Source: a virus
DNA length: 64,000 nt
Virus record (IMG/VR): IMGVR_UViG_3300050343_000285
Location: 96,001-160,000 of that record
Direction: 5' to 3' (one strand)
The notes under the pieces were generated by a model. That model saw nothing but the letters and a program-made list of their open reading frames with translations. It was not told where the DNA came from and searched no databases. Shown here piece by piece: positions 2,390-34,918 of the stretch. Positions within the stretch are counted from its first letter, which is position 1; every line of letters starts with the position of its first letter. Position numbers and translations under genes: made by a program.

Positions 2390-3136
2390 TTAAGCAAAAA
2401 GTTTATACCAGTCAGAATATTCTTCTGGCACATTGTGCATATTTTTACAACTGGTGTCCATCTGTGTTCTAGAGACAAAATCAGTCCTTACATTAACTAT
2501 TTTTTTTGTAGAGCAAAAAAGGTTGAATTTGTCTATATTATCCGAGATACAACTATCTATTTGTTTATATAGCGGAAAAATTAAGTCTAAAAGCTTTTTA
2601 GAACCCGTCTGTGAGACTACATACCCATAAGTGCCTGTAATTAATCCTCTAGGTTTAGATATAATATTATTAATAATCTTTTTTTGAAAACCAGGAATTT
2701 CGTTACATCCCAAATATATAATGTCATATGAGCCTTGAGAGTCCTCTATTTGCCCTAATACAGAGCTGAGGTCGTAATCGAATCTATCATTTATTATAAT
2801 ATCATCTTCTAAAACAAGAAAGGGCTTATGAGCATCCCTACATTCTTTATAAATTAAATTATGAGATAATGCACAAGCTAATGATCCGTATGTTAAAGAT
2901 ACTCCGTACTGTTGTTGTTTTTGTTTAATAATATCATTTTTGGCTTTTGTCGTAACTATAGATTCAGGTATAAGTCTAATATCTAAGTACTTACCAATAA
3001 CTGCTTCATATCTTTTACAAGTTTTACTTAAAAATTTAGACTTTTTAATTTCTTGTTCGAAGTAAGTTTTTTTATTTTTGTCTTCGTCTAGATTAATGTA
3101 ATATATTTGTTCGAAATACGAGTATAGGTCTATCAT
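2390..3136 (-). CDS. Glycosyltransferase family 25
   Basis: YYINLD, YEAVIG, GSLACALSH, LVLEDDI and GTYGYVVS motifs typical of GT25. Confidence 0.85.
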   Translation of the reverse strand: MIDLYSYFEQIYYINLDEDKNKKTYFEQEIKKSKFLSKTCKRYEAVIGKYLDIRLIPESIVTTKAKNDIIKQKQQQYGVSLTYGSLACALSHNLIYKECRDAHKPFLVLEDDIIINDRFDYDLSSVLGQIEDSQGSYDIIYLGCNEIPGFQKKIINNIISKPRGLITGTYGYVVSQTGSKKLLDLIFPLYKQIDSCISDNIDKFNLFCSTKKIVNVRTDFVSRTQMDTSCKNMHNVPEEYSDWYKLFA

Positions 3137-4062
3137 TGAATATATCTATATATTTTATTGTTATCTAATTTAAACGCTTCTTTTCCATAGTTTTCCCAAT
3201 TAATAGTAATAATTTTTTTATTTAAATCAAATTTACCATAGTGATTATTTTCTATATTAAATATTTTATGTCGTTTGGTATCTATAAAACAATAAGACTC
3301 CCAGCCATAATGAACAAAGTATGCGATATCAAATTCATCTTGACTAATATACATCTTACCTTCGCTATCAGGAATGAAGCAATGCTTGGAGGATATATTA
3401 TTTCCGTGTATGTTGTATATGGCATAATCGATATTATCTAAAACTTTGGATGTGATATTATTGTCTCTCCACTTTTTTCTCCATCCAGCATCTTCAAAAA
3501 TATGTATTTTACTCAATTCTGAGGACGTTGTGTTAAGTAAAACATTTAGTGCTTTTCTATTAAAAATATACGTGAAAGGCATACCAAACTGAACATTGCT
3601 TTTTAAATCCTCATGCCAATGTCCTCCAACGTTATCAAATTTACCCTTATATAATTTATTATTGTTTAGCTGGTATGTAATATAGCCAGACAGCACATCC
3701 TCCTGACATTTTTGATAATGATTTAACATATTCTCTATATATGTTTTTTTATATATATCATCATCATCTATTTTAATAAATATATCATATTTTTTATAAT
3801 CTGCTTTTTTGATTGGGTAAAGATAATTTTCATGTTGAGAGAAATTAGGATGAAAAAGTATTTTTAATCTTTTATCTTTTGAGTAATCAGATAGTAGATA
3901 TTCATATTCATACTGCTCTCTAGGTGTGTCTACAGATAGACCAATAGCGTAATCGAAAGAACTATGCGATTGGTTTAGGATACTATTAGTACAATGATAT
4001 AGATTATAAGGTCTTTTATAGGATGTTGTGAAGCATAAAATACTAGGATTTTTTCTGCGCAT
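3133..4062 (-). CDS. GT-A fold (GT2-like) glycosyltransferase with C-terminal beta-rich module
   Basis: N-terminal ILCFTTSYKRP and IKIDDDDIY (DxD) motif. Confidence 0.65.
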   Translation of the reverse strand: MRRKNPSILCFTTSYKRPYNLYHCTNSILNQSHSSFDYAIGLSVDTPREQYEYEYLLSDYSKDKRLKILFHPNFSQHENYLYPIKKADYKKYDIFIKIDDDDIYKKTYIENMLNHYQKCQEDVLSGYITYQLNNNKLYKGKFDNVGGHWHEDLKSNVQFGMPFTYIFNRKALNVLLNTTSSELSKIHIFEDAGWRKKWRDNNITSKVLDNIDYAIYNIHGNNISSKHCFIPDSEGKMYISQDEFDIAYFVHYGWESYCFIDTKRHKIFNIENNHYGKFDLNKKIITINWENYGKEAFKLDNNKIYRYIQ

Positions 4063-4064
4063 AT

Positions 4065-5108
4065 CTATTCATTAATACTGTAGAAATAATTATCGTTATC
4101 GTATTTTTTATAAAAAAATTTCATCGCCCCAAGTATCCCATGTAATATTTATAGTATCATTATCCTTTATTTCAAAAGCTCCATGGTCGTCATTATCTAT
4201 ATTATACATTCGGTTATTTCTTTTGTTAAGATAAACAAAGGATGACCAGTAATTGTGCTCAAAAACACATAAGGCAAAATTTTCGTTATCTATACTTTTG
4301 TAATAAGCGCCATCGGTATTGATATTAACATCCTGAGTTTCTTCTTTTTCAATAAGAAAAAGAGTGCTAATATGTCCTAATTCTCTTACTTTTATTTTAT
4401 GTTCAGCCCATACGTTCATCCATTCATTTTTAGATCTAACAGGTGAAGAAAAAATTATATCCATTGCTTTATTATTATATATAAAGTTATATTTCTTTTC
4501 ATATGATTTTTCCATATTGAAAGCGCTATCGATTATTTTATCGCAAGATACACACAGAACGTCACAAGGTTTGTCTTTATATATATCGACTAAGTTTTGG
4601 ATATGATTAGGGTTGTAATTAAAGTCTGGATTACAGTATATGAAAGTATTATATTTTTCCTTAGCTACATGTTCCAGCAAGTATAGATCGTCTGACGTTT
4701 GATCATTATATTTATTTTGAAAAACAATTTTGATAGAGTTTTTTGGAATATAATTAGATATAATTTCTCTATATATTCTATGTTCTGATTTAGATTCAGT
4801 GCGAATATTGAGTATAAAATCTATATTAGGATATGTTTGGCTATTAAATTCATTAAGATAAGTCAGTAAAGACTTTGGATCTTTATTGAAATTAGAAAAA
4901 ACATAAGATTCTTAAAATACTATCAGAATTAGCAGGCTTAGGTGTGGGGATTATTTTTTTCTTAGCTTTTTTAGCCACTTTTTTTAATTTGCGTTTTGGT
5001 CGGTTTTCGAATTGGCTTTTTAGTTGATATTTTATTTGTTGGTGTTTTTTTTGTTGGTGTTTTTTTTGTCGGGGATTTGGTTTTAGTACTGGATTTTGCT
5101 CTCGGCAT
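4065..5108 (-). CDS. Paralog of the 3133-4062 GT-like protein with a Lys/Pro/Thr-rich N-terminal tail (two frameshifts)
   Basis: ATG 5108 MPRAKSSTKTKSPTKKTPTKKTPT...SILRILCF; removing one T at ~4900 and one at ~4110 joins it to the 4108-4680 ORF; shares the W.S...NI.N...G.F...I.W..(Y/W)G.E.F module with its neighbour. Confidence 0.65.
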
Positions 5109-5133
5109 TGTATTTTCCTATTTAAAAATAAAC

Positions 5134-6448
5134 TTAAACATTGATAATGATTTTTTCACACCAATCCCCACCCTCTATATGAGGTATTATAACGCAGTGA
5201 TGCACATTTCCTTCACATGAAAATTTAGCGTGATGTGAGTTTCTTCTTTTACTAAAGCATTCTTCGTAATAAGCTTCCTCATGATTGAAATCTTTACGCC
5301 ATAGTAGTTTATTGTCTTTGTCTTCAAATCCAAAAAACCAAAAATCAAATTTAACATTATCAGGAATGTCGTCTCTGTTCCATTCTACATTATAATTATG
5401 GGTACCTAACATACCATTAGACCATTCTTCTTCTGACATAATATATGGCTCTGGTATTTCTGTAGAATCATGGATACGAGATGCATACTTATGCACTTTT
5501 CTGTTTTGGAAATCTAGACCACAATACAGTTCGTATTCGTGTAAACTTCTCTTATTACCAAACCCATAATGTCTAAAGTCTATATTAGAAATTTCCATAC
5601 CAAAAAGTTTTCTTTGTCTTTCTTTAGACCTAATATTTCTAGCTTCAGCTTCGATGTCAAAATCATTGGACTTTACATGATCCTCCCAATGTTTATGCTC
5701 TTTTTGTCTTAAATACTCATGCCATATAATAGAATATGTTGGATGAAACATATCATAGCCATGAGTATATGCTCTAGCGCTCAAAGTTACTTCTTCACCA
5801 CGAAAATATAAATTGGGGTCGTAAATACATTCTCTACAAAAATGACCAGAAGTGAAGATGAAGTGACCAGAAAGCAATCTAGCTTTAATTAAATTAATAC
5901 CTTTAGATTTCAAAAATTTATGATTATTAATGAGTTGTGGTCTAGATATTATATCACCATCATCGGTAAAAGTATCAAAAGTAACAATTCGATACGGCTC
6001 TTCTTTCAGTGGTTCTTTGTCTTCTTTATTCTGGCCAATAGGTTGTTCCATATGTACCAATAATTGGTTTAGATGAAGGAGCTTCCTGATATAGATTTTT
6101 TAAATATTCGTCCCCAGTGTTCTTTAAAAATCTATGATGAGAGTCTAGTTGCAAAATAATACTTCTTCATCTGTGATATAGATGTTTTTGTATAGTGTGC
6201 CTAGCCCAGCAAGCGCCCTTACTTTGTCTGCCAATCGCATTCATAAATTCTTAATGTTTTTATTATCTGTAAATTCTTGTATGGACTTTCGGATTCTTCT
6301 GTTTTTTGCCAACAAATGACCCACTCTAATGAGATCTGGGTGTTTAGCTTTTAATAAAAAGATCTCTTAGCGTCGGTAAAAGCTCAGGATCTCGATATGA
6401 GGCTATGCTTACAAATATCAGATTATTATTCTTTGTCGTTATGGACAT
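5134..6448 (-). CDS. GT60 (Gnt1/OGNT-type, GlcNAc family) protein O-alpha-GlcNAc transferase, frameshifted
   Basis: Manual reconstruction: MSITTKNNNLIFVSIASYRDPELLPTLRD, SKGACWARH, LQLDSHHRF, then in the annotated ORF LSGHFIF, YDPNLYFRGEE, RAYTHGYD, IIWHEY. Confidence 0.8.
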
Positions 6449-7170: not shown

Positions 7171-7177
7171 GCAGATC

Positions 7178-7789: not shown

Positions 7790-7790
7790 T

Positions 7791-18044: not shown

Positions 18045-18980
18045 TTATGTCTTTCTCATAAGCTTATTATTCATAATTATATATTCTATTAATGGTTTAT
18101 CCTCAAGATGCAACCATTGAATTTTTAAATTATTTTGTTGATTATCTATAAGATTTCCGTATATGTTTAAATCTTCTTTTAAATAACAAAAATTATTATA
18201 CATAATTACTAGATGTAATCTTTTATATTGTTCATTAAAAATAGGTATAGTTTTGCAAATATTGCCATGTATTTTTAGATTTTCATTTTGTATTAGATAT
18301 CCGAAAATTCTTTCAAGAGAATGACAATAGGTACCTGTATTAGAATTACCATCATGTACTTTTCCAATCTCATTGCTGAGTAGTATATCTAGAGTATCTA
18401 TTTTATCATTAAAATATTTTTGAAATATTTTTGTTTTTGACATAAACATAGACCCAGCGCTGAATAAACCTTTTTTTGTTTTATCATAATCTATATTTAG
18501 TAAACTACATAAATAGTTTATTTTATTAGAATTATTACCTTCTTTATTTTTTAGTTTTAAAAAGCTGTGAGAAATCATTCCAATATGTTTATTTTTTAAA
18601 ATTTTTAAATTATTATCAAAATTAAAGAGACTGCCGATATAAGTGTCAATCAGCACACTCCCCCAATCAACATGGAAGCTACCTCCCCATTTAGATTCTT
18701 TAGAGTGTAATTTAATAAAATATGGATAATCTTCATGGTTTATTTTAGAAATTTGATGTATAAAAGGAGCTATATCTACTCCATAGTTTGGATGAAAATT
18801 TATATTTTTAATTCTATTAGAATATTGATTAATAAAATTTAGTAAAGATGTACTATTTCTATTATGTTCTCCTATAGATAAATCAACATCTAAATATTTT
18901 ATATGATTTAATAATTTAGATATTTCTTCTAATCTATTTAATGAGTATAGAGAAAGTAAAAGAATGCATTTATGTTTCAT
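18045..18980 (-). CDS. Rhamnan synthesis F (RgpF)-like glycosyltransferase
   Basis: NYGVDIAPF, IKLHSK, AGSMF, HSLERIFG motifs. Confidence 0.75.
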   Translation of the reverse strand: MKHKCILLLSLYSLNRLEEISKLLNHIKYLDVDLSIGEHNRNSTSLLNFINQYSNRIKNINFHPNYGVDIAPFIHQISKINHEDYPYFIKLHSKESKWGGSFHVDWGSVLIDTYIGSLFNFDNNLKILKNKHIGMISHSFLKLKNKEGNNSNKINYLCSLLNIDYDKTKKGLFSAGSMFMSKTKIFQKYFNDKIDTLDILLSNEIGKVHDGNSNTGTYCHSLERIFGYLIQNENLKIHGNICKTIPIFNEQYKRLHLVIMYNNFCYLKEDLNIYGNLIDNQQNNLKIQWLHLEDKPLIEYIIMNNKLMRKT

Positions 18981-20061
18981 ATTTACTCATCGCAGAGCCT
19001 ATAATTTGATGCATATCATAATATTTATATTCTGCTAATCTACCACCAAATAGATATTTGGATGATAAGTTTTTAGTTTCATTTTTATACTTGTCATACA
19101 GGTCGTTGTTCACTTTATTATTTATAGGATAGTATTTTTCGGTTTTTTTATTAAAGTCTTGAGGATACTCTTTGGTGATTACAGTATCTTTTTGTTTACC
19201 AAAATTAAAATGTTTATGCTCTATAATTCTTGTGTACGGAACGTCATAATCTGTATAATTAATAATAGCGTTACCTTGATAATCAAGAGTGTCGGTTAAT
19301 ACTTCATGCTGAAATTTCAAACTTCTATAATCTAAAGTGCCATATTTTTGATTGAAAAAATCATCTATCGCACCTGTGTATACAATCTTTTTAGCTAAAC
19401 TATCCCAATAATCTCTTTTAGCAAAATAATCTGTATTCAATACAACTTCTGTTTTTTCTATCATATTAGACATCATGCTTGAATAACCATTTTCTGGAAT
19501 ACCTTGATATTTATCAAAATAATAATTATCATTAAAATTCAATCTTATAGGCAATCTTCTGATAATAAATGTTGGTAAATTTTTAGGCTCAGTACCCCAT
19601 TGCTTCTTTGTGTATCCATATATAAATGTATAATATATTTCTTCTCCTACTTGAGACAGAATCCACTCTTCTAAATTTGTAGGTTTAGTAATATTAAGTT
19701 TTTCTTTTTCTAATTTATCCGAAGCTTCTTTGGGCGTGTTAACTCCCCATAGCTGTTGTAATGTCATTAGGTTTATAGGAAAAGAATATAGAGTATCCCC
19801 ATAATTAACTTTAGGACTGTTTATATAACTATTAAATTCACTAAATTGATTTACGTATTTCCATATTTTATTAGAATTAGTGTGAAAAATATGTGGACCA
19901 TATTGATGAACATCTATTTCATGTTGTTTTTTTGTGTAACAATTACCAAAAGGATGTTCTCTTTTTTCTATAATTAAACATCTTTTATTATCTGCATTGG
20001 CTAAATTTGCAAAAGTAGAGCCGAATAAGCCAGACCCAACTATTAAGTAATCGTATCGCAT
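18970..20061 (-). CDS. glf: UDP-galactopyranose mutase
   Basis: IVGSGLFG FAD motif, GNCY, HQYGPHIFHT, YTKKQWG, YQGIP, TRIIEHKHF, GRLAEYKYYDM. Confidence 0.95.
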   Translation of the reverse strand: MRYDYLIVGSGLFGSTFANLANADNKRCLIIEKREHPFGNCYTKKQHEIDVHQYGPHIFHTNSNKIWKYVNQFSEFNSYINSPKVNYGDTLYSFPINLMTLQQLWGVNTPKEASDKLEKEKLNITKPTNLEEWILSQVGEEIYYTFIYGYTKKQWGTEPKNLPTFIIRRLPIRLNFNDNYYFDKYQGIPENGYSSMMSNMIEKTEVVLNTDYFAKRDYWDSLAKKIVYTGAIDDFFNQKYGTLDYRSLKFQHEVLTDTLDYQGNAIINYTDYDVPYTRIIEHKHFNFGKQKDTVITKEYPQDFNKKTEKYYPINNKVNNDLYDKYKNETKNLSSKYLFGGRLAEYKYYDMHQIIGSAMSKYET

Positions 20062-20073: not shown

Positions 20074-23000
20074 CTACCCTCCTATAACAACAGTATCAAT
20101 ATCACCACAATTAATACATTTACCACCACCATCAATATCGGCTTTAAATGTTTCTGGAGGGCAAAGATATAAATCATTAGAATTTGTATCATAGTTAGGA
20201 CCACAATAAAATAATGCAGCATCAAATGTACAGGTTAAGAGTCCTGTGAGATTATCTAATTCTACTATTAATTTATCTATTTGGAAACCTGTTCTAAATG
20301 GAGATGTTCCATTTACACTAAGCACAGTAATGTCTGAATTGGAGGACAAGAGATTGTTGGTGGAAGAAGGAACTCTGATACGGCCGCCACTATAGGTATA
20401 AGAGTTTTTATTAGCTGAAGATGCTGCTGTTAGGGGTATTTTCAGTTTTATAGCAGATGGATTCTGAGCACCCTCCGAAGATAGTGGTAATATTACATGT
20501 CCGGGTTCAAAGCTTTCTCCGTCTCCACAGCCTGTTTTTGTGTCTAAGGTAGTACAACAGCTGTAACTACCTAAAGCAACACAGGTATCAACAGTACCCC
20601 TTTTGCATAAAGCATAGAAGCCTGCAGGATTAAAGCTACAATCGTCACAACCCTCGTCATTTTCGCATTTATCTTTTAAACAAGATCCTATCAGCTCAAA
20701 TACAGAACATTGTGTATTACCATCTAAGCTACCAAAAAATGGACATGTACCATCTTGTCCTGTACCTATTCTTCCTCTATTTCTGTCTGTATCAGTTATA
20801 CAACCGAGGAAGGCCCAAGGGTCTCCATTACCGTCACATTGATCGCATGGCGGACAGTACATTCTAGATAATGGCCAACATTGATCAGTTGCTCCTGTTT
20901 CATCATCAATACATCTGGCGTAATATCCAACATTATTTCCATAATGCTGTTCCTCTATAGCCCCTCCGCATATATCTATATAATAATCAGCTTCGCATTG
21001 TCTAATTGCCTCAAATTCTGAGCAGTAACTTTGATTTTCGAGACCTATGCTGTCAGAAATTTGACAATGAGTATAGTCATCAACAAAAACAGATTCTAAG
21101 TCGGTTTGATTAGCATCTGATGGTTGTTCTATACAGCCAGCAAAATAATTGGGGGGAATAGGTTCTTCATCAATAGCTTCGGGAGTAATAATGGTTGCGC
21201 AACATAGCAATGGTGTTGCTGTAAATGTCGGAAATATAATAGGCGTGGTTATGGCAATATCGCCAACGGTTGCTGTTGTTTCTGTAGTTATCCTAGCTGT
21301 CTCTTGAGTTCCTGTTGTGGGGGTTGTTGGGGTTGTTGGGGTTTTTGTAGTTGGTGTTGTTGTGGCAGTTGTAGTTGTAGTTGTTGGAGTAGTTGTTGTG
21401 GTTGTGGTTTCAATTACTGGAAATGTTGTTGTTGTTGTTGTTGTTGTTTGAGGGCAATGTTTTTGTAAACATACCCCTTCATCATAATGTTGAGCTTCTA
21501 CTATTAAGTTTTCAATAATTACATTAGTGCTAGGATCGAGGGTGTCTAATTGGTTTTTAGAGATGACATCATTTCTATACATAGCTACACATGAATTAGA
21601 GTCTATTGCATAGAAACCAACATAGTCATATAGATTTGAATAAGATGCTGATGGAGTAGTTGGATCATATAAAAGTATTGCAATATATTCACAAGCATTA
21701 ACGGTAACCGGTGTTGGCGATGTTGCATTTTCATTAGGATCTTTTAAGGTGATGTTTTCCACCCAGTAAGTTATTGGGTTCGGGGTAGGTGTAGGCTCCA
21801 CGCATGGTTGTAAATACATTCTATGATAACAAGGGTTCGGTCCTGGCGTTGGTGTCGTTGCGGTTGTCGTGACTGTCGTGGTGGTTGTCGTTTTTGTAGT
21901 GGTATCAGCAAAAAGTAGTGGTGTAGGTGTAGGTGTAGGTGTAGGTGTAGGTGTAGAAGTTAAGATTGTTGTGGTAGTTGTTGTAGGAGTTGGCGGACAT
22001 GTGCTAGAGTGTAACATATGATCTGTTAAACAGAACTCACAACTAACATATGAGTCTTGAGACGAACTACTATCTAAGGTAGCTTTATAATAAATTATAG
22101 CATCTGCTGGTAAGTCAGAAGCATCGACTAACCAAGCACGAGCGCAAAAATTTTGATCTTCATAACTACCACCATAGTTTTGAAACTGTTTAATATAAAT
22201 ATAATATTTTGGATCGTCTATGTAAGCTGTTGTATTATGCGTACTAAAAATTTCTTCAGTCCAATACTTAGCAGCATATTCATTATCAATATATTGAACA
22301 TATTTAATAGAATTTACTTCATTACAACATCCGTCTATTTCTTGTATTGCTAAATATATTACTTCAGGATATATTTGTGCTGATGATGTTTTTTGAGGAC
22401 CTATAGGATTTGGAGCGTTGTATGTTGTCACAGCCCTAAAGTTGTAAGTTGGATCTAATATAAACATCTCGTTTACTATATAGGTAATAGTTTGAGTATA
22501 AATATTTTGTCCATTTCTATATTCACCTACCAAACTAGCTACATCAAAATTTAGTAAGTTATTACTTCCTGGTAAATCATCCGAACTTTCCCAATCACTA
22601 CCAAAACTAGATTGCCATTGTAATTCAGCAAATTCTCCAGAATCACCAAGTATTGTAGTCCAATGATTTTCCAAAATGACACTTGATAAATTAATAATGG
22701 GTTCTGCAATTTGATAAATAATTTTTGTTCTTAATTGATTAGTCGCTGAACCTGAAGTTTTATAGGTTTCTGCTTTAAATTTAACACTATCTAATATGTG
22801 TGCTGTTGGAGACTGTTTAGTACTACTTAATCCTTTGGTGTCTCTAATAGTGCCTGAAGGATTATAGCTTTTATCATTAGAAAATCTTAAAGGATCTACT
22901 TGATTAATGGGTCCATCAGAATCATATATAGTTTGTTCATAAATATCTTTTTTGATACTACTATTGCCTTTATCACTAAATATTTTGACAATGTAGTTGC

Positions 23001-26000
23001 GTCCTGAAAAATCTTCTCCTGGGAATGTACAGCATGAACAATCTATAGGCGTTGTATATATTGGCGTTGGTGTTGCATTATCCGAATAAGAATAATTAGA
23101 ATTACTGCTGTGAGCACAATCTTTATCTACCAAAAGATTATTGACATGAGAAAGTTGATTATCTATAGTCCCAAAAAATCTTTCTAAATTAATAGTTACA
23201 ATAAAAAATCTCCAATCATTAGGTATATTACCTAAATCTGAACCAAATCCAGATAAAAACTTTCTATATCTAGAAGGAACATTTGAGGAGTCCACCTTCA
23301 AGATAGGAATATCATCCCAAGATTGAAAACCATGGGTAACAGACCAATTGTCTGCATCAACATAACAGCCTGTAGTGTCATTTCCTGTAAAACTATTGCC
23401 GTCAGGAGATAAATCAATACATTTTGTAACCATGTGTGCCATGCCATATACGTGATCAGAAGCTTGATTAGTTGCTATGGATATACCATATCTAGTAGCA
23501 TCGCATTTCCCTGGAGGGTCGTCATCATATAAAGCATTAAGACCAAAATCTGTTATAACTGATAAATCAACAGCCCATGCAATAGTAATACTATCATGAT
23601 CTTTAAATAGTCTAACGTAACGACTATCTTCTGAACAATTTTCAAATGGAGGTTCTGTTGCTGGTGTTGGTGTAGCAGGAGTAAGTTCTGTGGTGGCACA
23701 ACTTAATTGATATCGACTTAACAACGCATTCACATTAGTCTGTATTTCGTTAACATTTAATGCTTTGTCATATACTAAGAAAGGACCCAGTTCACCATCA
23801 TAAGCTCCGGCATAGTTAGTTGCTCGTCCTATATGTGATATAGTTAGGCTGTCTTCAAGTTCATTAGTTGTAGCTATAGCAGCATCTCTTCCATAGTCTG
23901 ATGTTTCTCCCAAAAGGAAACAATCTTTATAATGATAAGCTTTATTATTATCAAATACAATTGTGTAAACAGACCATTGATTACTATTAAAAGAAGTAGT
24001 AGGCCCGTTAAATGTATTTAGATTAACGTCTGTTTCACCTTTAACTTGATTACTATCTAATTGTATATATGATTTATTATGAGATCTTCCATATATGAAA
24101 TTACTAGGGTTAAAATTTCTAATAACAAAACTGATTGTGCTACCAGCTCTACTAAGCGTTAAATCATTTCCAGTTACAGTATTAATATCAAAATCTAAAC
24201 TTTGTGAAGATCCATTAAATGTTAAGTAACTAAAATCATTAGAGAATATAGGCCAGTTTATTAACTGTGCATCATATCTCTCACCAACAGCTTTACCGGG
24301 TGTTAGATCTAATAAATAATTACCATAAGCACTAGCGTTAGGATCATAAGATAGTGGATCTATAAAGCATTCTAAATCATCTGTTACTATACTAGGAAAA
24401 ATATATGGAGTTGGGGTTACTGTAGTGGGGGTTGTTGTTGTAGTTGGGGTTGTTGGTGTGACACAAGAATTAATATCTGGATATCGTCCTGTCTTCACAA
24501 TTTCATTATGGTTGTGTTTAATTTCAGCATCACTTAATGCTTTATCATACAGTAATATTGGACCAACCCTACCCTGAAAGCTGGTGCCTATCCGACTAAA
24601 GTAAAAATGACCTAATAGTTTATTAGCAACAGCATCAGAACCGGCTGCATTAATATTACATTCTGAATATCCATACCATGTTTCTTCACCTATAAATTCA
24701 CAATTTTTATAATATTTAACTATACCTTCTTTGCTTACAACAATAGTAATATTATACCATTTTTCTCTATCCATATCAAATTGTGGTTCATTAGTTACTC
24801 TACTACCATCATATAGATTCGTTGTGTAGAAAGCTGTTTGAAAATAATTTGGACTAAAAAGCAGACCCGATTGTGGATCTCTATAACTACAGCTGTCGTC
24901 ATAATCTTTACTTGACCCATCGGGATTAAATTTTCTTGCTATGTCATCGGTTGATCCTATCAAATAACCTCGTTTGTCACCAAAGAATCTAGATTCATAT
25001 TCTTGAACAGCAATTGAGCTATCATAGTTGGATGTGTCGAATAATATTCCACCATCATAAAATCTATAAACTACAAAATTTAATGTGCATCCACCAGCTG
25101 GATGGTAAATATCTCCGTGTATATTAACATCCGTAATCGGATTGTCTGCATACTCAGGTTGCTCACTTGGAAGTATAGATAAATCAATAGCTCTAGAAGA
25201 CTGTGGTATATCGATATGACCTCCCCATCCGGGTAGTTGAATATAACTATTATCTGAAGCATAGGAGGGTAGTGTCCAAGGAGGATCGTCATCACCTGTC
25301 GCAAAAGTGCTATCAAACTTACCATGATATCCATTACCACTCCAATCGTATATCTGATACTCAGATAGGTCTACACAATAATTTGTCTTAGTTCCTGTCG
25401 TATCAACAAGATCAAAACAATCTTCAAATGATGAAGTAGGGGTCGGAGTGGTAGTAGTATAATTTTCAAGGGGTCGGTTTCGCAAAGAATCAGGAGGTGG
25501 GTTTTGCGAAAGCTCAGGATCATAAAAAAGCGTAAGTCCATCTTTAATAGGATTAAATGAAACTGTGCTTTGATCAGTAGGGTTGGTAACTAAGTATAAT
25601 GAACTAAAACTACTAATATTAACAGATATCGTTTTATTTGCAAAGTTACGAACGTAATCTCCATGTTCGATAGTTGCATCTGTAATACCATACTCATCTT
25701 TGTGGAATATTTTAAGACTATCAAACTCTGATTTAGTTATATTGTTTTTTAAGTTAAATGTTACTATTACGCTACCTGAGAAATTTGCGGTAGCTGTAAG
25801 ATTTACAGCAGAGGCGCTGCCTATCAAATTGTATTCTGTGATTGGTTCAATGTCTGGCAAATCGTAATCGGTTTGTATTTCTAAGTCGCCAGAATTAGTA
25901 ATTTCATCAAAATTTAAGTCAATAGAATCAATGAAATAATCAGAATAAGAAAAATTAGCAGATACATCCGATCCTTTGTTTAATGTTGTATCTCTAGAAA

Positions 26001-27897
26001 TGCGTTGACTTACTATATAAAATAAACTAAATTCATCAACTTGTGCGGATATCTTTTTTGTTTCAAAATCACGAATATATGAACCACTATTAACTGTTAC
26101 GTCTGTAAGTTCTAAAGTATCTTCTTTTATACGAAATACTTTTAAGTTATTGAACTCTGCTTTGGTAATATTATTTTCTGTATCATCTATTGAGAAGTCT
26201 ATAATTGCATCTCCATCAAATGATATTGGTGTGTCAATGTCTATAGAATCAATAATGGCATCGTTAGCATAATCTGTAGCAAAATCTGTAGATGGTACAG
26301 TACTAACATCTAATAATGATAGTGATAATTCATTTAAGTCAATAATATTAGAGAAGGATAACCCCAAAGTAAGAAGCTTATTAGTTCCTATGCTAGGGGA
26401 TGTTGTAATTGAGAATGGAAATTGTGGATCAGGAGTCGCTGTAGTAACAATTTGATGAACAGTAGGTGTGGGTGGAGTTGGTGGAGTTGGTGGTGCTGGC
26501 GGAGTTGGTGGTGCTGGCGGAGTTGGTGGTGCTGGCGGAGTTGGTGGAGCTGGTGGTGCTGGTGGAGTTGGTGATGCTGGAGGTGTTGGTGCTGTTGGTG
26601 CTGTTGGTGTTGTTGGTGGAGTTGGAGGAGTTGGAGGAGTTGGAGGTGAAGGTGGTAGAGTTGGAGGTATTGGTGGCGTTGGAGGTGAAGGTGGTAGAGT
26701 TGGAGGTATTGGTGGCGTTGGTGGCGTTGGTGGCGTTGGAGGTGCTGGAGGAGTTGGCGGTGGTGGTGGTGGTGGTAGAGGTGGTGGTAGAGGCGGTGGT
26801 GGAGGCGGTGGAGTAGGAGTAATTTCTGGTTGAGTTTCTGGTTGAGTTTCTTGTGTTGATTGAGTTTCCGGTTGAGTTTCTTGTGTTGATTGAGTTTCCG
26901 GTTGAGTTTCTTGTGTTGATTGAGTTTGTGCTGGTGGTGTTGGGGGTGCTGGTGGTGGGGGTGGAGGCGGTGGTGGCGGCGGTGGAGTAGCTTCTTGGCA
27001 AGGAGGGAACGCTCCAGAGAAGCCAACTCTATACCTACAATTTTCTGTATCCCATAGTTCGGAAGTCTGATTATCTAATTTATGAATATTAGCTACTTCA
27101 TCAAAACACCATTCAAATATAGATTTACTTGCAGTACAAGAAGGTTGTTTATCTGGACCAATATTGTAATTACAATATTCATGACTACTAATCACAAAAG
27201 CATTATATGGACCAATCGTGGTCCAATTAAAATCATTAACATCTTCATCTTCTGCACAAGGGCAGCATATATCCTCTGGTGGTGGAGTAGTTGTTGCTGG
27301 TGGGGGTCCGGGTGGTGGTGGAGGCTGACTAGGGCACTCAGGTAGATATCTAACAAAAAATGGTACCCAATCACACTGTGATATACTAAAAGCGTACGAA
27401 GTAAGACCTAATTGTGATCCGTCAGGACACATACTAGGTTGACCTACAGGAGGCAAGCTTGTGGGCCCCATGCATTTTGGATCTATAGGTGATTGAGGAA
27501 TATTAGGTGGTGGAAAAGGAGGTAGGGGTGTAGGAGTGGTGCTTGTACTTTGAGCCTCAAAAACATCCTCCTTAGCAATTCTATAGTTAACTATATCTAT
27601 TTTATTTTTGGGCACTTCACCAAAAGCAGATTCAAAAATTAAATTTTCATTTGCGTATATTCTATAATAATTTTCATAAGGATAAAATCCCGTATTATTA
27701 TATAGTACAGTAAAGACTTCGTGATCAGAATCTACAGTAAAGTCATAAGATTTAGCATTAACACTACCTATAAAATCATCATGATTTAAAGAAATTTTAT
27801 CTAATAATTTCTCTTCTCCAGCAATAATAGTTAGGCTATTATTATTCCAACCATCACCTTTAGTATCATATATAATAATAGAATATTTATATTTCAT
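20074..27897 (-). CDS. Giant 2607-aa modular virion fibre/adhesin-like protein (DxxGDGW domain, Pro-rich stalk, tandem beta domain x2, two LamG-like domains, Thr linkers, Cys-rich C-terminus)
   Basis: Uninterrupted ORF; GLTLFYDP..DWSGNGYHG..GPILLYDKALS and FIDP..DLT..FNGSS..GPFLVYDKAL concanavalin-A/LamG signatures; no signal peptide. Confidence 0.75.
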   Translation of the reverse strand: MKYKYSIIIYDTKGDGWNNNSLTIIAGEEKLLDKISLNHDDFIGSVNAKSYDFTVDSDHEVFTVLYNNTGFYPYENYYRIYANENLIFESAFGEVPKNKIDIVNYRIAKEDVFEAQSTSTTPTPLPPFPPPNIPQSPIDPKCMGPTSLPPVGQPSMCPDGSQLGLTSYAFSISQCDWVPFFVRYLPECPSQPPPPPGPPPATTTPPPEDICCPCAEDEDVNDFNWTTIGPYNAFVISSHEYCNYNIGPDKQPSCTASKSIFEWCFDEVANIHKLDNQTSELWDTENCRYRVGFSGAFPPCQEATPPPPPPPPPPPPAPPTPPAQTQSTQETQPETQSTQETQPETQSTQETQPETQPEITPTPPPPPPPLPPPLPPPPPPPTPPAPPTPPTPPTPPIPPTLPPSPPTPPIPPTLPPSPPTPPTPPTPPTTPTAPTAPTPPASPTPPAPPAPPTPPAPPTPPAPPTPPAPPTPPTPPTPTVHQIVTTATPDPQFPFSITTSPSIGTNKLLTLGLSFSNIIDLNELSLSLLDVSTVPSTDFATDYANDAIIDSIDIDTPISFDGDAIIDFSIDDTENNITKAEFNNLKVFRIKEDTLELTDVTVNSGSYIRDFETKKISAQVDEFSLFYIVSQRISRDTTLNKGSDVSANFSYSDYFIDSIDLNFDEITNSGDLEIQTDYDLPDIEPITEYNLIGSASAVNLTATANFSGSVIVTFNLKNNITKSEFDSLKIFHKDEYGITDATIEHGDYVRNFANKTISVNISSFSSLYLVTNPTDQSTVSFNPIKDGLTLFYDPELSQNPPPDSLRNRPLENYTTTTPTPTSSFEDCFDLVDTTGTKTNYCVDLSEYQIYDWSGNGYHGKFDSTFATGDDDPPWTLPSYASDNSYIQLPGWGGHIDIPQSSRAIDLSILPSEQPEYADNPITDVNIHGDIYHPAGGCTLNFVVYRFYDGGILFDTSNYDSSIAVQEYESRFFGDKRGYLIGSTDDIARKFNPDGSSKDYDDSCSYRDPQSGLLFSPNYFQTAFYTTNLYDGSRVTNEPQFDMDREKWYNITIVVSKEGIVKYYKNCEFIGEETWYGYSECNINAAGSDAVANKLLGHFYFSRIGTSFQGRVGPILLYDKALSDAEIKHNHNEIVKTGRYPDINSCVTPTTPTTTTTPTTVTPTPYIFPSIVTDDLECFIDPLSYDPNASAYGNYLLDLTPGKAVGERYDAQLINWPIFSNDFSYLTFNGSSQSLDFDINTVTGNDLTLSRAGSTISFVIRNFNPSNFIYGRSHNKSYIQLDSNQVKGETDVNLNTFNGPTTSFNSNQWSVYTIVFDNNKAYHYKDCFLLGETSDYGRDAAIATTNELEDSLTISHIGRATNYAGAYDGELGPFLVYDKALNVNEIQTNVNALLSRYQLSCATTELTPATPTPATEPPFENCSEDSRYVRLFKDHDSITIAWAVDLSVITDFGLNALYDDDPPGKCDATRYGISIATNQASDHVYGMAHMVTKCIDLSPDGNSFTGNDTTGCYVDADNWSVTHGFQSWDDIPILKVDSSNVPSRYRKFLSGFGSDLGNIPNDWRFFIVTINLERFFGTIDNQLSHVNNLLVDKDCAHSSNSNYSYSDNATPTPIYTTPIDCSCCTFPGEDFSGRNYIVKIFSDKGNSSIKKDIYEQTIYDSDGPINQVDPLRFSNDKSYNPSGTIRDTKGLSSTKQSPTAHILDSVKFKAETYKTSGSATNQLRTKIIYQIAEPIINLSSVILENHWTTILGDSGEFAELQWQSSFGSDWESSDDLPGSNNLLNFDVASLVGEYRNGQNIYTQTITYIVNEMFILDPTYNFRAVTTYNAPNPIGPQKTSSAQIYPEVIYLAIQEIDGCCNEVNSIKYVQYIDNEYAAKYWTEEIFSTHNTTAYIDDPKYYIYIKQFQNYGGSYEDQNFCARAWLVDASDLPADAIIYYKATLDSSSSQDSYVSCEFCLTDHMLHSSTCPPTPTTTTTTILTSTPTPTPTPTPTPLLFADTTTKTTTTTTVTTTATTPTPGPNPCYHRMYLQPCVEPTPTPNPITYWVENITLKDPNENATSPTPVTVNACEYIAILLYDPTTPSASYSNLYDYVGFYAIDSNSCVAMYRNDVISKNQLDTLDPSTNVIIENLIVEAQHYDEGVCLQKHCPQTTTTTTTTFPVIETTTTTTTPTTTTTTATTTPTTKTPTTPTTPTTGTQETARITTETTATVGDIAITTPIIFPTFTATPLLCCATIITPEAIDEEPIPPNYFAGCIEQPSDANQTDLESVFVDDYTHCQISDSIGLENQSYCSEFEAIRQCEADYYIDICGGAIEEQHYGNNVGYYARCIDDETGATDQCWPLSRMYCPPCDQCDGNGDPWAFLGCITDTDRNRGRIGTGQDGTCPFFGSLDGNTQCSVFELIGSCLKDKCENDEGCDDCSFNPAGFYALCKRGTVDTCVALGSYSCCTTLDTKTGCGDGESFEPGHVILPLSSEGAQNPSAIKLKIPLTAASSANKNSYTYSGGRIRVPSSTNNLLSSNSDITVLSVNGTSPFRTGFQIDKLIVELDNLTGLLTCTFDAALFYCGPNYDTNSNDLYLCPPETFKADIDGGGKCINCGDIDTVVIGG
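26460..27000 (-). repeat. In-frame tandem repeats: 18-bp PTPPAP-type units, poly-Pro and three 30-bp QSTQETQPET units
   Basis: Direct sequence: ggtgctggcggagttggt-type units and tgattgagtttccggttgagtttcttgtgt repeats. Confidence 0.9.
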
Positions 27898-29601: not shown

Positions 29602-29816
29602 TAAATTAATTTATCAATATATTTCAAGGAGCTGAAGTCTGTTATGTTTTTATATATAATTGGATTTCTAGAAGGATCGTATTGTATTATCTTATGATCT
29701 ATATTTATAATAATATTATTTTGATTGATGTCTATCGGATGCTGTACTTTATTATCATCTGAGTTAATATAAAAATTAATTTTATACATAATATCTAGAT
29801 TATCATTCGCATTCAT
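29601..29816 (-). CDS. Small hypothetical protein
   Basis: 71-aa ORF in operon context. Confidence 0.45.
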   Translation of the reverse strand: MNANDNLDIMYKINFYINSDDNKVQHPIDINQNNIIINIDHKIIQYDPSRNPIIYKNITDFSSLKYIDKLI

Positions 29817-32800
29817 TCTCTGTTTGTAACCATTCTAGGGCTTCGTATTCTGTATCAGCTATTTCTATAGTTAAACCAAATGGGTGTGGAGAACATTCTT
29901 CATCAGTAGGTGTTTCTAGTATATATTTAGGACTGCTAATATTAATATAGCAATATTTATCATATAGGCACCATTTATTTTCATTGTATATAGATTTTTC
30001 TTGTAAGCACGGTTCTATACTGCAGGTGTTATTGCAGCAATATCCGGGTCTTTTGATAACTTTGATGGTATATTGATGATAACAATCATTGTCTTTAGAG
30101 TACGGTACATTTTGATTTATATTAAATTGAGCTTCTTCTTCATCTGTATATGGACCATCTTCATAAATTTTATTATGGCACCCATCTGTATAGTTTATGT
30201 AATATATTTGACAATGTGAATTGTTATAGCAATATTGGTTTGAAAATTCTGTCTTTTGATTTTCAAAATTTTGTACAGCTCCGGTGGTAGCAGCGTCTGT
30301 GGTCACAGGAGTATCATCTGTGCCCGGAGTGTCAGTACTGCTTACTATTTTACATACGCCCTCTACACAGCCATATCCAGCTGGACAGCAGATGCCCTCA
30401 CAACAAACATGCCCTGCTTTGCAACAATTGCCTCCACAGCAATAGTAAGTCATATCTGGGCAGCAAACTCCATTGCAACAGTTTTTCTGATTATCGCAGC
30501 AAACACCCCCACAACAACGCTGCAAAGCATTACAGCATACATCATTACAGCAATCTTGTGGGTATGGACAACAAACATCATTAGGCTTAACGCCACAACA
30601 TCTACTATTAGTAGTGCCAGCACAACAAGATCCTGTTCCGTTTTGACAATCTCCACAATAATCATCAAATATATCTGAACAACAAACTGGAGCTCCCACA
30701 GGATTATAGCATACAAAATGGAATCCAATAGGGCATGGGTCTTGAGTTGGAGGAGGCGGTGGAGTCGGTGGAGGCGGTGGAGGTGGAGGCGGCGGAGGTG
30801 GAGGTGGTGGAGGTGGTGGAGGTGGTGGAGGTGGTGGAGGTGTTGGAGGTGGTGGTGGAGGTGGTGGAGGTGTTGGAGGCGCTGGAGGCGTTGGGGGTGC
30901 TGGAGGCGTTGGGGGTGCTGGTGGAGTTGGAGGTGCTGGTGGAGTTGGAGGTGCTGGTGGAGTTGGAGGTGCTGGTGGAGTTGGAGGTGCTGGTGGAGTT
31001 GGAGGTGCTGGAGGCGTTGGGGGTGCTGGAGGCGTTGGAGGTGCTGGTGGAGTTGGAGGTGCTGGTGGAGTTGGAGGTGCTGGTGGAGTTGGAGGTGCTG
31101 GTGGAGTTGGAGGTGGTGGCGGAGTTGGAGGTGGTGGAGGTGGTGGAGGTGGTGGAGGTGGTGGAGGTGCTGGTGGAGTTGGAGGTGCTGGTGGCGTTGG
31201 AGGTGCTGGTGGAGTTGGAGGTGGTGGCGGAGTTGGAGGTGGTGGAGGTGGTGGAGGTGGTGGAGGTGGTGGGGGTGGAGGTGGTGGCGGAGTTGGAGGT
31301 GGTGGCGGAGTTGGAGGAGGCGGTGGAGTCGGTGGAGGTGGTGGAGGTGGAGGCGGCGGAGGTGGTGGGGGTGGCGGCGGAGGTGCTGGTGGAGTTGGAG
31401 GTGCTGGTGGCGTTGGAGGTGCTGGTGGCGTTGGAGGTGCTGGTGGAGTTGGAGGTGCTGGTGGCGTTGGAGGTGCTGGTGGAGTTGGAGGTGCTGGTGG
31501 AGTTGGAGGTGCTGGTGGCGTTGGAGGTGCTGGTGGAGTTGGAGGTGCTGGAGGTGTTGGTGGTGGTGGAGGTGGTGGAGGTGGTGGAGGTGCTGGTGGT
31601 GTTGGAGGTGCTGGAGGTGTTGGTGGTGCTGGAGGTGTTGGTGGTGCTGGAGGAGTTGGTGGTGCTGGTGGAGTTGGAGGTGGTGGAGGTGGTGGAGGTG
31701 CTGGTGGCGTTGGAGGTGCTGGTGGCGTTGGAGGTGCTGGTGGCGTTGGAGGTGCTGGAGGTGTTGGTGGTGCTGGAGGAGTTGGTGGTGGTGGAGGTGG
31801 TGGAGGTGCTGGTGGCGTTGGAGGTGCTGGTGGCGTTGGAGTTGCTGGTGGCGTTGGAGGTGTTGGAGGTGTTGGTGGTGCTGGAGGTGTTGGTGGTGCT
31901 GGAGGTGTTGGTGGTGCTGGTGGAGTTGGAGGTGCTGGTGGCGTTGGAGGTGCTGGAGGAGTTGGAGTTGCTGGTGGAGTTGGAGGTGCTGGTGGTGTTG
32001 GAGGTGCTGGAGGTGTTGGTGGTGGAGTTGGAGTTGGAGGAGCTGATGGTGTTGGTGGTGGAGTTGGAGGAGCCGATGGTGTTGGTGGTGGAGTTGGAGG
32101 AGCTGATGGTGTTGGTGGTGGAGTTGGAGGAGCCGATGGTGTTGGTGGTGGAGTTGGAGTTGGAGGAGCTGATGGTGTTGGTGGTGGAGTTGGAGTTTCT
32201 TTTGTTAAAGTTTCTGTAGGAGGAGTCTTTGTTAAAGTTTCTGTAGGAGGAGTCTTTGTTAAAGTTTCTGTAGGAGTCTCTGTTAAGGTTTCTGTAGGAG
32301 TCTCTGTTAAGGTTTCTGTAGGAGTCTCTGTTAAGGTTCCTGTAGCAGGACTCTTCGTTAATGTTTCTGTAGGAGTCTCTGTTAAGGTTTCTGTAGGAGT
32401 CTCTGTTAAGGTTCCTGTAGGAGTCTCTGTTAAGGTTCCTGTAGCAGGACTCTTCGTTAATGTTTCTGTAGGAATCTCTGTTAAGGTTTCTGTAGGAGTC
32501 TCTGTTAAGGTTTCTGTAGGAGTCTCTGTTAAGGTTTCTGTAGGAGTCTCTGTTAAGGTTCCTGTAGGAGTCTCTGTTAAGGTTCCTGTAGCAGGACTCT
32601 TCGTTAATGTTTCTGTAGGAGTCTCTGTTAAGGTTTCTGTAGGAGTCTCTGTAGTTCTTGTTTTTGTAGGAGTTGTTTCTATCGTTGTAGTTGATACAAT
32701 CGTGGTTATCGTTGTTGTTATAGTGGGACAAGTAGTTACTAGGATAGGGGTAGCATCAGTAAATTCTCGTGGGTTTTGAGTTGGTGCGGGTGGTGTTGGA

Positions 32801-34918
32801 GGTGCGGGTGGCGTTGGAGGCTCCGGAGGTGTTGGTGGTGCTGGAGGTGCTGGAGGTGCTGGTGGCGTTGGAGGTGCTGGAGGTGTTGGTGGTGCTGGAG
32901 GTGTTGGTGGTGCTGGAGGAGTTGGTGGTGGTGGTGGTGGAGGTGGTGGAGGTGGTGGAGGTGGTGGAGGTGGTGGAGGTGGTGGAGGTGGAGGTGGTGG
33001 AGGTGCTGGTGGCGTTGGAGGTGCTGGTGGCGTTGGAGGTGCTGGAGGTGTTGGTGGTGCTGGAGGAGTTGGTGGCGGTGGAGGTGGAGGTGGTGGAGGT
33101 GGTGGAGGTGGTGGAGGTGCTGGTGGCGTTGGAGGTGCTGGAGGTGTTGGTGGTGCTGGAGGTGTTGGTGGTGCTGGAGGAGTTGGTGGTGGTGGTGGTG
33201 GAGGTGGAGGTGGTGGAGGTGGTGGAGGTGGTGGAGGTGGTGGAGGTGCTGGTGGCGTTGGAGGTGCTGGAGGTGTTGGAGGTGCTGGAGGAGTTGGTGG
33301 TGCTGGTGGAGTTGGAGGTGGTGGAGGTGGTGGAGGTGCTGGTGGCGTTGGAGGTGCTGGTGGCGTTGGAGGTGCTGGTGGCGTTGGAGGTGCTGGTGGC
33401 GTTGGAGGTGCTGGAGGTGTTGGTGGTGCTGGAGGAGTTGGTGGTGGTGGAGGTGGTGGAGGTGCTGGTGGCGTTGGAGGTGCTGGTGGCGTTGGAGGTG
33501 CTGGAGGTGTTGGAGGTGCTGGAGGTGTTGGTGGCGCTGGAGGAGTTGGTGGCGCTGGAGGAGTCGGTGGCGCTGGAGGTGTTGGTGTTGCTGGAGGAGT
33601 CGGTGGCGCTGGAGGTGTTGGTGTTGCTGGAGGAGTCGGTGGCGCTGGAGGTGTTGGTGTTGCTGGAGGAGTCGGTGGCGCTGGAGGTGTTGGTGTTGCT
33701 GGAGGAGTTGGTGGTACTGATGGAGTTGGAGGTGCTGACGGAGTTGGAGGTGCTGACGGAGTTGGAGGTGCTGATGGAGTGACTTCTGTTATTAAGCTTT
33801 CTGTAGCAGGACTCTTCGTTAAGGCTTCTGTAGGAGTCTCTGTTAAGGTTTCTGTAGCAGGACTCTTCGTTAAGGCTTCTGTAGGAGTCTCTGTTAAGGT
33901 TTCTGTAGCAGGACTCTTCGTTAATGTTTCTGTAGGAGTCTCTGTTAAGGTTTCTGTAGGAGTCTCTGTTAAGGTTTCTGTAGGAGTAGTTTTGGTAGGG
34001 GTTTCTGTAGGAGTAGTTTTGGTAGGGGTTTCTGTTAAGGTTTCTGTAGGTGTTGTTTCTGTAACGGTAGTTACTGTATCAGTCGTTTTTGTAGGTGTCG
34101 TTTCTGTAACTGTAGTTACTGTATCAGTCGTTTTTGTAGGTGTTGTCGGAGTAGTTGTAGTACCTGTCGGCGGCGTGGTAGTTAGTGTAGTTTCTGTAGG
34201 TGTTGTATCCGTAGGTGTTGTTGGGGTAGTTGTAGTTACTGTCGGCGTTGTATCCGTAGGTGTCGTTGGGGTAGTTGTAGTTACTGTCGGCGTTGTATCC
34301 GTAGGTGTCGTTGGGGTAGTTGTAGTTACTGTCGGTGTTGTTGTGGTTGGTGTTGTTGTGGTTGGAGTAGTTTCTGTTAGTGTTGTTGTGGTTGGTGTTG
34401 TTGTGGTTGGAGTAGTTTCTGTTAGTGTTGTTGTGGTTGGTGTTGTTGTGGTTGGAGTAGTTTCTGTTAGTGTTGTTGTAGTTGGTGTTGTTGTAGTTGG
34501 TGTTGTTGTAGTTGGTGTTGTTGTAGTTGGTGTTGTTGTAGTTGGTGTTGTTGTAGTTGGTGTTGTTGTAGTTGGTGTTGTTGTAGTTGGTGTTGTTGTA
34601 GTTGGTGTTGTTGTAGTTGGTGTTGTTGTAGTTGGTGTTGTTGTAGTTGGTGTTGTTGTGGTTGGTGTAGTAGTTGTAGTCGTAGTTGTAGTTGGTGTGT
34701 TGTGGTGGTGTAGTAGTTGTAGTCGTAGTTGTAGTTGGTGTAGTAGTTGTAGTCGTAGTTGTAGTTGGTGTAGTAGTTGTAGTCGTAGTTGTAGTTGTTG
34801 TGGTTGTATCACAGCAACATAATCTTAGATTGTCTGGTTTGGCATGTTTAAATTTTGTTAATGCTTCATGACCGAATTTTAATATACCGCCACGAATAAT
34901 ATCTCGAAATAAAGACAT
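29803..34918 (-). CDS. Giant (~1700-aa) mucin/extensin-like Thr/Pro repeat protein with Cys-rich ends (frameshift near 34700)
   Basis: True start probably 34918 ([14 protein letters not shown]...[10 protein letters not shown]); missing A residues at ~34700 shift into the 1669-aa frame; [19 protein letters not shown] and poly-Pro blocks; C-terminal CCxxxCC repeats. Confidence 0.8.
30740..32190 (-). repeat. Pro-rich tandem repeat block 2 ([12 protein letters not shown], poly-Pro)
   Basis: Near-continuous ggtgctggtggagttgga 18-bp units and (ggt/gga)n runs on the plus strand. Confidence 0.95.
32190..32650 (-). repeat. 24-bp TETLTETP tandem repeat block 2
   Basis: Repeated tctgttaaggtttctgtaggagtc units. 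Confidence 0.95.
32775..33780 (-). repeat. Pro-rich tandem repeat block 1
   Basis: [12 protein letters not shown] units and a run of more than 20 Pro codons at ~32923-33003. Confidence 0.95.
33780..34050 (-). repeat. [17 protein letters not shown] repeat block 1
   Basis: Same 24-bp unit family as 32190-32650. Confidence 0.9.
34050..34810 (-). repeat. Thr-rich repeats (15-bp PTTTT units and TTTTP variants)
   Basis: Tandem gttggtgttgttgta units. Confidence 0.95.

Follow-up and report, generated by a model that had tools for sequence, protein, structure and literature searches.

A GT60-type glycosyltransferase gene of a large marine phage, split in one genome record and uninterrupted in independent assemblies, with a predicted role in protein O-glycosylation

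The characterised enzymes of glycosyltransferase (GT) family GT60, the members of Pfam family PF11397, all glycosylate polypeptides (PMC8724618; PMC7185993). A DxH motif in place of DxD is a signature common to GT60 and its sister family GT27 (PMC7185993), and the ricin domain of GT27 is absent from GT60 enzymes (PMC8724618). Two kinds of GT60 enzyme have been described in protists. OGNT of Trypanosoma cruzi and Gnt2 of Dictyostelium start mucin-type O-glycans on Thr and are Golgi type-II membrane proteins. Gnt1 of Dictyostelium and Toxoplasma is a soluble, cytoplasmic transferase that adds N-acetylglucosamine (GlcNAc) to hydroxyproline (Hyp) in Skp1, its sole substrate, after the prolyl hydroxylase PhyA has acted. 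The mucin O-glycans of T. cruzi are reported to carry galactofuranose (Galf). Here we describe a gene of this family in the genome of a marine tailed phage of about 195 kb. It lies at 5134-6448 of a stretch of 64,000 nucleotides (nt), referred to below as the window, which comprises bases 96001-160000 of the 194,787-base IMG/VR virus record IMGVR_UViG_3300050343_000285, rated complete by CheckV. Apart from two Thr/Pro-coding stretches the G+C content of the window is about 30%. The stretch is present in 20 public runs from 14 seawater studies, and a megablast search of GenBank phages with positions 4000-8000 gave no match.

Glycosylation of virion proteins by a phage's own enzymes has a precedent in mycobacteriophages, in which a glycosyltransferase operon was shown to decorate the phage's structural proteins (Freeman et al., 2023, cited in PMC12619734); according to the passage of PMC12619734 that cites this work, the subunits of the capsid and tail tube bear the glycans on their C-terminal extensions. 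Searches of the literature on GT60 or PF11397 in phages yielded only a list of viral auxiliary genes that names GT60 in passing, and no functional study. To our knowledge, mucin-like giant repeat proteins have not been reported in the virion glycosylation of mycobacteriophages.

The membership of the gene in PF11397, that is, in a GT-A glycosyltransferase family of the CAZy-GT60 type, is secure. An earlier note on this DNA, made from the letters alone, had assigned the locus to GT60 on the strength of several short motifs. All of them were recovered by six-frame translation on the minus strand, distributed across three frames: IFVSIASYRDP (6418-6386), GACWAR (6217-6200), LQLDSHHRF (6154-6128), SGHFIF (5871-5854), YDPNLYFRGEE (5823-5791) and RAYTHGYD (5775-5752). 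The boundaries given there are also correct, with an ATG at 6448-6446 and a stop codon at 5134-5136, as is the placement of the gene in a bacteriophage, since the record is that of a tailed phage. The same note had named a match to the hidden Markov model of the family as its own test, and such matches were obtained above the cut-off of 21 bits even from the fragments in the record. The C-terminal open reading frame (ORF) of 308 amino acids (aa; 6060-5134) matches PF11397 with an E-value of 3.8e-29 and 102.7 bits, and the N-terminal 34-aa ORF (6448-6344) matches profile positions 2-24 with an E-value of 1.4e-5 and 25.2 bits. In a six-frame family scan of the genome the locus appears as three collinear PF11397 pieces that cover profile positions 2-351. 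The intact protein of 428 aa, taken from the independent assemblies described below, matches the same profile positions with its residues 1-305 (E 1.2e-65, 222.8 bits). This match is far beyond chance.

Conservation and structure prediction agree with the profile. Across 41 homologues, down to 36% identity, the invariant residues are D17, D95-S96-H97, E209-E210, R216 and H234, so the DxH that GT60 shares with GT27 is present as D-S-H. H234, about 139 residues downstream of D-S-H, is a candidate for the C-terminal His, a role suggested by its spacing only. The AlphaFold2 model of the intact protein has a mean predicted local distance difference test (pLDDT) score of 92.7, and its best solved folds are exclusively polypeptide N-acetylgalactosamine transferases (ppGalNAc-transferases), led by ppGalNAc-T2 (residues 3-334 of the model, 279 residues aligned, Z 22.7, root-mean-square deviation 3.7); the first other GT-A family follows at Z 16.5. 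The predicted fold is thus a GT-A fold closest to GT27 and without a ricin-type lectin domain, which is the arrangement of GT60. The resemblance to GT27 is predicted at the level of the fold only: neither the protein nor a profile of the 41 sequences matched any chain of the PDB at E-values up to 10, and neither PF00535 nor a ricin Pfam domain was matched in the intact protein, so it is not a GT27 member by sequence. Outside the Pfam domain, residues from about 340 to 428 form a conserved beta-sandwich which, modelled alone, reaches a pLDDT of 88 and gives weak FN3-like matches (Z 6.7). The N-terminus leads directly into the first Rossmann strand, with neither a signal peptide nor a membrane anchor, and the enzyme is therefore predicted to be cytoplasmic.

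In the record the gene is not continuous. Its reading path runs through f1 (6448-6356), f2 (6351-6319), f0 (6317-6294), f2 (6285-6250), f0 (6248-6228), f1 (6217-6176), f2 (6174-6160), f1 (6154-6029) and f2 (6018-5134), and alignment to full-length homologues places all eight frame changes within 6355-6019. The earlier note had presented the gene as hidden by frameshifts. This holds for the record, where the gene is indeed masked, and fails as a property of the phage, because independent assemblies carry the gene intact and the breaks are insertion errors. An exact-protein look-up with the neighbouring 309-aa GT2 recovered 14 contigs, four of which span the GT60 locus: one of 110.6 kb from Tara Oceans and three Logan contigs that derive from other runs. 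All four encode one uninterrupted PF11397 gene of 428 aa, with an identical protein in each (L005:5645-6931, L007:4291-5577, L008:3100-4386 and L009:1134-2420). These contigs match the window at 100% identity from 5134 to about 5985, with a single mismatch in these roughly 850 nt. Beyond about 5985 the window abruptly differs at some 20% of positions, and its insertions and deletions (indels) relative to the intact contigs are insertions only. Within the gene these are +1 near 6355, +1 near 6318, +5 near 6294-6290, +1 near 6252, +1 near 6229, +1 near 6175, +2 near 6166-6157 and +4 near 6022-6019, together with an in-frame +3 near 6119-6117.

The wider region has the character of a mosaic. Between 1800 and 12200, blocks that are 100% identical to independent contigs (1800-5985, 7230-9000 and 10330-12191) alternate with noisy blocks (5985-7230 and 9000-10330) that have about 15-25% mismatches and many private insertions. 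Inside the identical blocks the isolated indels are nine one-base homopolymer errors of the kind A5 to A6, G3 to G4 or T5 to T6, with extra bases at 4112, 4896, 4979, 7995, 8247, 8832, 8951 and 10973 and one missing base at 5130; of the eight extra bases, six are missing from the contigs of four runs, each from a different study. In a joint comparison with three intact relatives, 51 inserted bases over 6000-7200 are private to the window, which also has 2 deletions there. Contigs of the runs X1, X2 and X5 have 17 letters fewer than the window over 6000-6314, and this deficit corresponds exactly to the 17 insertions that alignment to an 88%-identical relative shows. In the noisy block the likeness of the window switches from one 100-nt bin to the next, being of the L005 type and then of the L094/P0009 type, as would be expected of a strain-variable region whose resolution or polishing was poor. 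The frame changes of the GT60 gene thus come from errors of sequencing or assembly, of the insertion type, in a strain-variable block at about 5985-7230 that was poorly resolved, and in the natural phage population the gene is intact, at 428 aa.

It is very improbable that the gene is a true pseudogene, with frameshifts present in the sampled virus itself. Once the insertions are taken out, the ratio of nonsynonymous to synonymous substitution rates (dN/dS) in the divergent block is 0.17 relative to L005, the Tara allele; the substitutions therefore arose in a working gene under purifying selection. The bias of the noisy block towards insertions, the eight extra bases among the nine homopolymer indels, and the fact that six of them are contradicted by the contigs of four studies likewise argue against decay of the gene, as does the breakage of at least six neighbouring genes in the same patches. 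No contig on record encodes the exact truncated product of either 308 aa or 42 aa. What speaks for a pseudogene, and so against an intact gene in this particular virus, is that a 34-mer taken exactly from the divergent 5' allele of the window had no match in IMG/VR and JGI metagenome contigs, in searches that may have excluded the record itself and near-identical ones. As that allele was recovered in no independent contig, we can only infer its intact state. A second, lower-depth contig in run X1 seems to carry the window's substitutions over about 6164-6270, so the divergent allele itself is probably real. Programmed frameshifting and an alternative genetic code were considered and rejected: eight shifts fall within about 340 nt and go in both frame directions, the neighbouring genes carry homopolymer +1 errors of their own, and the gene is uninterrupted under translation table 11 in four independent assemblies.

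Several neighbours show the same damage. The GT2-like gene downstream of GT60 carries the +1 homopolymer insertions at 4896 and 4979 and a third +1 at its 3' end (4112), and a Lys/Thr/Pro-rich 45-aa ORF at 4971-5108 is its true N-terminus. Upstream of GT60, a 218-aa gene (6451-7177, minus strand) and several small genes that include a sigma-70 region-4 protein (8786-10330, minus strand) are fragmented in the window and intact in L005, L007 and L008. Further away, within the glycan island described below, an IMPDH/GMP-reductase-family gene (E 8.8e-62) adjoins a GT4 gene (13681-14823 / 12906-13700, minus strand); the GT4 gene encodes 361 aa in the Tara contig and 264 aa in the window, where it was likely shortened by another error. 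The split of the prolyl-4-hydroxylase-type (P4H-type) oxygenase is probably one more casualty. The record thus has patches of insertion errors, and any gene in it that looks split, frameshifted or recoded needs checking against independent contigs. The same caution extends to apparent breaks elsewhere in the genome, in a tape measure gene with +1 breaks and in a split gene for DNA polymerase III alpha. The features of the window that bear on the GT60 gene and its possible acceptors are collected in Table 1.

Table 1. Positions of the GT60 gene, its parts, and other genes of interest in the window (all on the minus strand)
Feature	Position	Strand	Remarks
GT60/PF11397 glycosyltransferase gene	5134..6448	-	nine pieces in the record; 428 aa, intact in independent assemblies of the same phage
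Noisy, divergent 5' block of the GT60 gene	5985..6448	-	DNA alignments to L004 and L005; contains all eight frame changes
D-S-H metal-binding motif, DxH variant of the GT-A DxD	6137..6145	-	D95-S96-H97 of the intact protein
GT-A catalytic domain, residues 1-305 of the intact protein	5506..6448	-	PF11397 extent, AF2 (AlphaFold2) model, fold match
C-terminal beta-sandwich, about 90 residues outside the Pfam domain	5137..5403	-	R375 and D377 conserved
GT2-like glycosyltransferase downstream of GT60	4108..5110	-	346 aa, intact in independent contigs; broken here
GT2 glycosyltransferase, 309 aa, intact	3133..4062	-	
GT25 glycosyltransferase, 248 aa	2390..3136	-	
UDP-galactopyranose mutase (Glf)	18970..20061	-	E 2.5e-72; directly downstream of the 2607-aa giant; in the glycan island
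Giant 2607-aa protein, candidate acceptor	20074..27897	-	poly-Thr, PT and PPTPPA tracts; ConA-like lectin domain; Cys-rich C-terminus
Second giant, about 1700 aa, candidate acceptor	29803..34918	-	T9[14 protein letters not shown] + PPTPPA repeats; Cys-rich C-terminus
Prolyl-4-hydroxylase-type 2OG-Fe(II) (2-oxoglutarate- and iron-dependent) oxygenase, PF13640	52648..53207	-	E 4.4e-9; three frame pieces in the record

The earlier note had seen in the enzyme the natural priming enzyme for the repeat proteins of the window. What the enzyme glycosylates has to be judged from its family, from its surroundings in this phage and from those of its relatives. In this phage the gene belongs to a glycan island of about 55 kb, which also contains both giant Thr/Pro-repeat proteins. 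The other enzymes of the island include two GT2, GT25, GT11, GT77-like, GT4, RgpF-like and CAP59-like proteins, Glf, a sugar O-methyltransferase and a cytidylyltransferase. In the giants, PPTPPA and poly-Pro residues number in the hundreds. An intact GT60 gene and an intact giant of 2606 aa occur together on the independent Tara contig. The second giant starts at an ATG at 34918 (MSLFRD...CCCD, followed by T13P T9P T9PP), and its frame breaks at about 34.7 kb, inside the Thr repeats. The Tara contig, a short-read assembly of 110 kb, starts inside the C-terminal Cys-rich domain of this second giant; this is where a short-read assembly would break on repeats, which only long reads span. Beyond the giants, at 42282-42890 on the minus strand, a 202-aa protein matches PF25216 Volactin, an actin-like family (E 1e-37), and is a phage-encoded fragment or homologue of an actin-like protein.

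A link to such acceptors comes from other phages. Around the homologues of the gene we compared 80 phage loci, counting as Thr/Pro-rich any gene with a 60-residue stretch of at least 60% Thr+Pro. Of the genes immediately upstream of GT60, which share its strand and as a rule end 40-80 nt short of its start, 21 of 79 (27%) are Thr/Pro-rich, and of the second genes upstream 11 of 75, against 27 of 977 genes (2.8%) at four or more positions away; for the first upstream gene this gives an odds ratio of 12.7 (p 7e-13). When loci are clustered at 70% identity, adjacency is found in 8 of 21 clusters where 3.4 are expected (p 0.0045). The Thr/Pro-rich neighbours are long multi-domain proteins in which (TP)n or (TPTPTV)n linkers join globular parts, and these parts vary, with ConA-like lectin, proprotein-convertase P-domain, InlB B-repeat, RCC1 propeller and VWA domains among them. 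What recurs beside GT60 is therefore a type of tract, not any single conserved gene. A degenerate DNA pattern for Thr/Pro tracts matched the records of four of five relatives, and a control with the reversed pattern also often matched; one relative's contig, G001, begins inside a Thr/Pro tract. This branch of GT60 is repeatedly linked to Thr/Pro-repeat, adhesin-like proteins.

Because family, fold, cellular location and genomic context agree, we consider it probable that the GT60 enzyme starts the O-glycosylation of fibre-like or adhesin-like proteins of the phage itself, on their Thr/Pro tracts. The enzyme would work in the host cytoplasm during infection and would transfer a first N-acetylhexosamine (HexNAc), most likely alpha-GlcNAc from host UDP-GlcNAc, to Thr/Ser or possibly to Hyp. 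The acceptors would be the long Thr/Pro tracts of the two giants (20074-27897 and 29803-34918), and the glycan would then be extended by the other transferases and sugar-nucleotide enzymes of the island.

Several observations weigh against O-glycosylation of these proteins. In the phage's own clade (L014-L023) the GT60 gene is not adjacent to a Thr/Pro gene and stands beside GT2 and GT25, families that usually build polysaccharide or lipopolysaccharide (LPS); the giants lie 14-28 kb upstream of it, on the same strand. The association statistic draws on related loci, and its support at the level of clusters is moderate. Donor-sugar specificity is not readable from sequence, and the function of phage PF11397 proteins is a prediction.

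The clade context would suit a different acceptor. The gene order there is ClpP-like, the 218-aa unknown, GT60, GT2, GT2, GT25, with PAP2 among the immediate neighbours of GT60, and GT25 is an LPS-type family. On this alternative the enzyme would join GT2 and GT25 in building or modifying host polysaccharide, such as LPS or capsule, a lipid-linked glycan, or the phage DNA. The homologue in the cultured jumbo phage XacN1, which adjoins a carbamoyltransferase gene and a GT9 gene, and the JGI label of some distant homologues as a 'glycosyltransferase involved in cell wall biosynthesis' point in the same direction. Because of the GT2 and GT25 neighbours a non-protein acceptor is a serious rival reading; three lines of evidence make it rather unlikely: every characterised GT60 enzyme uses a polypeptide acceptor (PMC7185993; PMC8724618); the predicted fold is nearer to polypeptide GalNAc-transferases, at Z 22.7, than to polysaccharide or LPS GT-A enzymes, at Z 16.5 or below; and Thr/Pro-rich genes are in tenfold excess directly upstream of GT60 in other phages.

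If the acceptor is a protein, the modified residue may still be debated. In a route modelled on Gnt1, the phage oxygenase would hydroxylate Pro in PPTPPA and poly-Pro segments and GT60 would then add GlcNAc to Hyp and not to Thr. The ingredients are at hand, as a PF13640 oxygenase lies in the same window, the giants are rich in PPTPPA and poly-Pro, and the founding member of GT60, Gnt1, is specific for Hyp and acts in the cytoplasm, the phage protein likewise having neither signal peptide nor anchor. This route is nevertheless improbable. The oxygenase lies 46 kb from GT60, and no homologue of it was found within 10 kb of GT60 in the 80 loci by tblastn, a search of low sensitivity run with three broken query pieces. 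Moreover, the tracts beside GT60 elsewhere are mostly (TP)n or (TPTPTV)n, with Thr as abundant as Pro. For O-glycosylation by the phage enzyme, Thr thus seems to be the more likely acceptor residue.

The comparison with the known systems can now be drawn more closely. With OGNT and Gnt2 the phage enzyme shares the Pfam family, the DxH motif and the lack of a ricin-type lectin domain, and the candidate acceptors, with poly-Thr/Pro tracts such as T9P and TTTTP, resemble the mucin repeats of T. cruzi. The presence in the glycan island of a Glf gene, a source of Galf, is a further likeness to T. cruzi. The phage protein differs from OGNT and Gnt2 in being soluble and in its added, conserved C-terminal beta-sandwich of about 90 residues. 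With Gnt1 of Dictyostelium and Toxoplasma it shares the family and a soluble, cytoplasmic nature, along with a P4H-type oxygenase in the window; it differs in that no Skp1-like target is present and that the low-sensitivity tblastn search placed no relative of the oxygenase near GT60 in the 80 other loci. The nearest solved fold, ppGalNAc-T2 of GT27 (PDB 6nqt and 2ffu), likewise has DxH and a GT-A domain followed by a C-terminal accessory domain, although there is no detectable sequence similarity and the accessory domain in the phage protein is a small beta-sandwich and not a ricin beta-trefoil.

Relatives of the gene are widespread. Marine metagenomes are rich in full-length homologues of about 428 aa (more than 200 matches), more than 593 IMG/VR contigs encode relatives, and a profile search returned 6,376 cluster representatives at 50% identity. 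The nearest PF11397 clusters of the ESM Atlas are 76-97% viral. GT60-type genes are thus no rarity in phages. Some metagenomic relatives (P0123-P0135) reach 900-2461 aa, with two to five tandem GT60 catalytic domains. Among cultured phages a homologue was found only in the Xanthomonas and Stenotrophomonas jumbo phages XacN1, Xoo-sp13, CM1 and RAS14; it is annotated as a glycosyltransferase in Xoo-sp13 and XacN1 and as a hypothetical protein in RAS14, and has no annotation in CM1. The homologue in XacN1, ORF334 ('glycosyltransferase family protein'; AP018399.1), is full-length, with 34% identity over 99% coverage that includes the C-terminal domain. Some 9 kb away is ORF325, a protein of 3314 aa located beside the baseplate wedge and with PT linkers in its C-terminal part. 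XacN1 differs from the present phage in its distant lineage, its host and the carbamoyltransferase neighbour (AP018399.1 203370-223508).

A broader proposal, which we put forward tentatively and hold to be possible, though short of probable, is that large marine, freshwater and jumbo phages encode a complete mucin-type or extensin-type system that gives the virion a glycocalyx, a counterpart of the trypanosome mucins. In such a system a soluble GT60 would prime giant Thr/Pro-repeat fibre proteins made in the cytoplasm, the beta-sandwich would serve as an acceptor-targeting module, and phage transferases would extend the glycan with Glf-dependent Galf, fucose, nonulosonic or KDO-type (3-deoxy-D-manno-octulosonic acid) sugars, and methylation.

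The gene described here belongs to a large branch of GT60 that spans phages and bacteria and is uncharacterised. Its intact sequence and candidate peptide substrates are now defined, and XacN1 offers a culturable system in which O-glycosylation of the virion could be tested. If the predicted activity is true, the enzyme would be a soluble, bacterially expressible polypeptide HexNAc-transferase for glyco-engineering. For the phages themselves it would mean that O-glycosylation of virion proteins is common and overlooked in large environmental phages, with a bearing on how hosts are recognised, how readily particles stick to marine gels and mucus, and how well they withstand proteases and stay stable.

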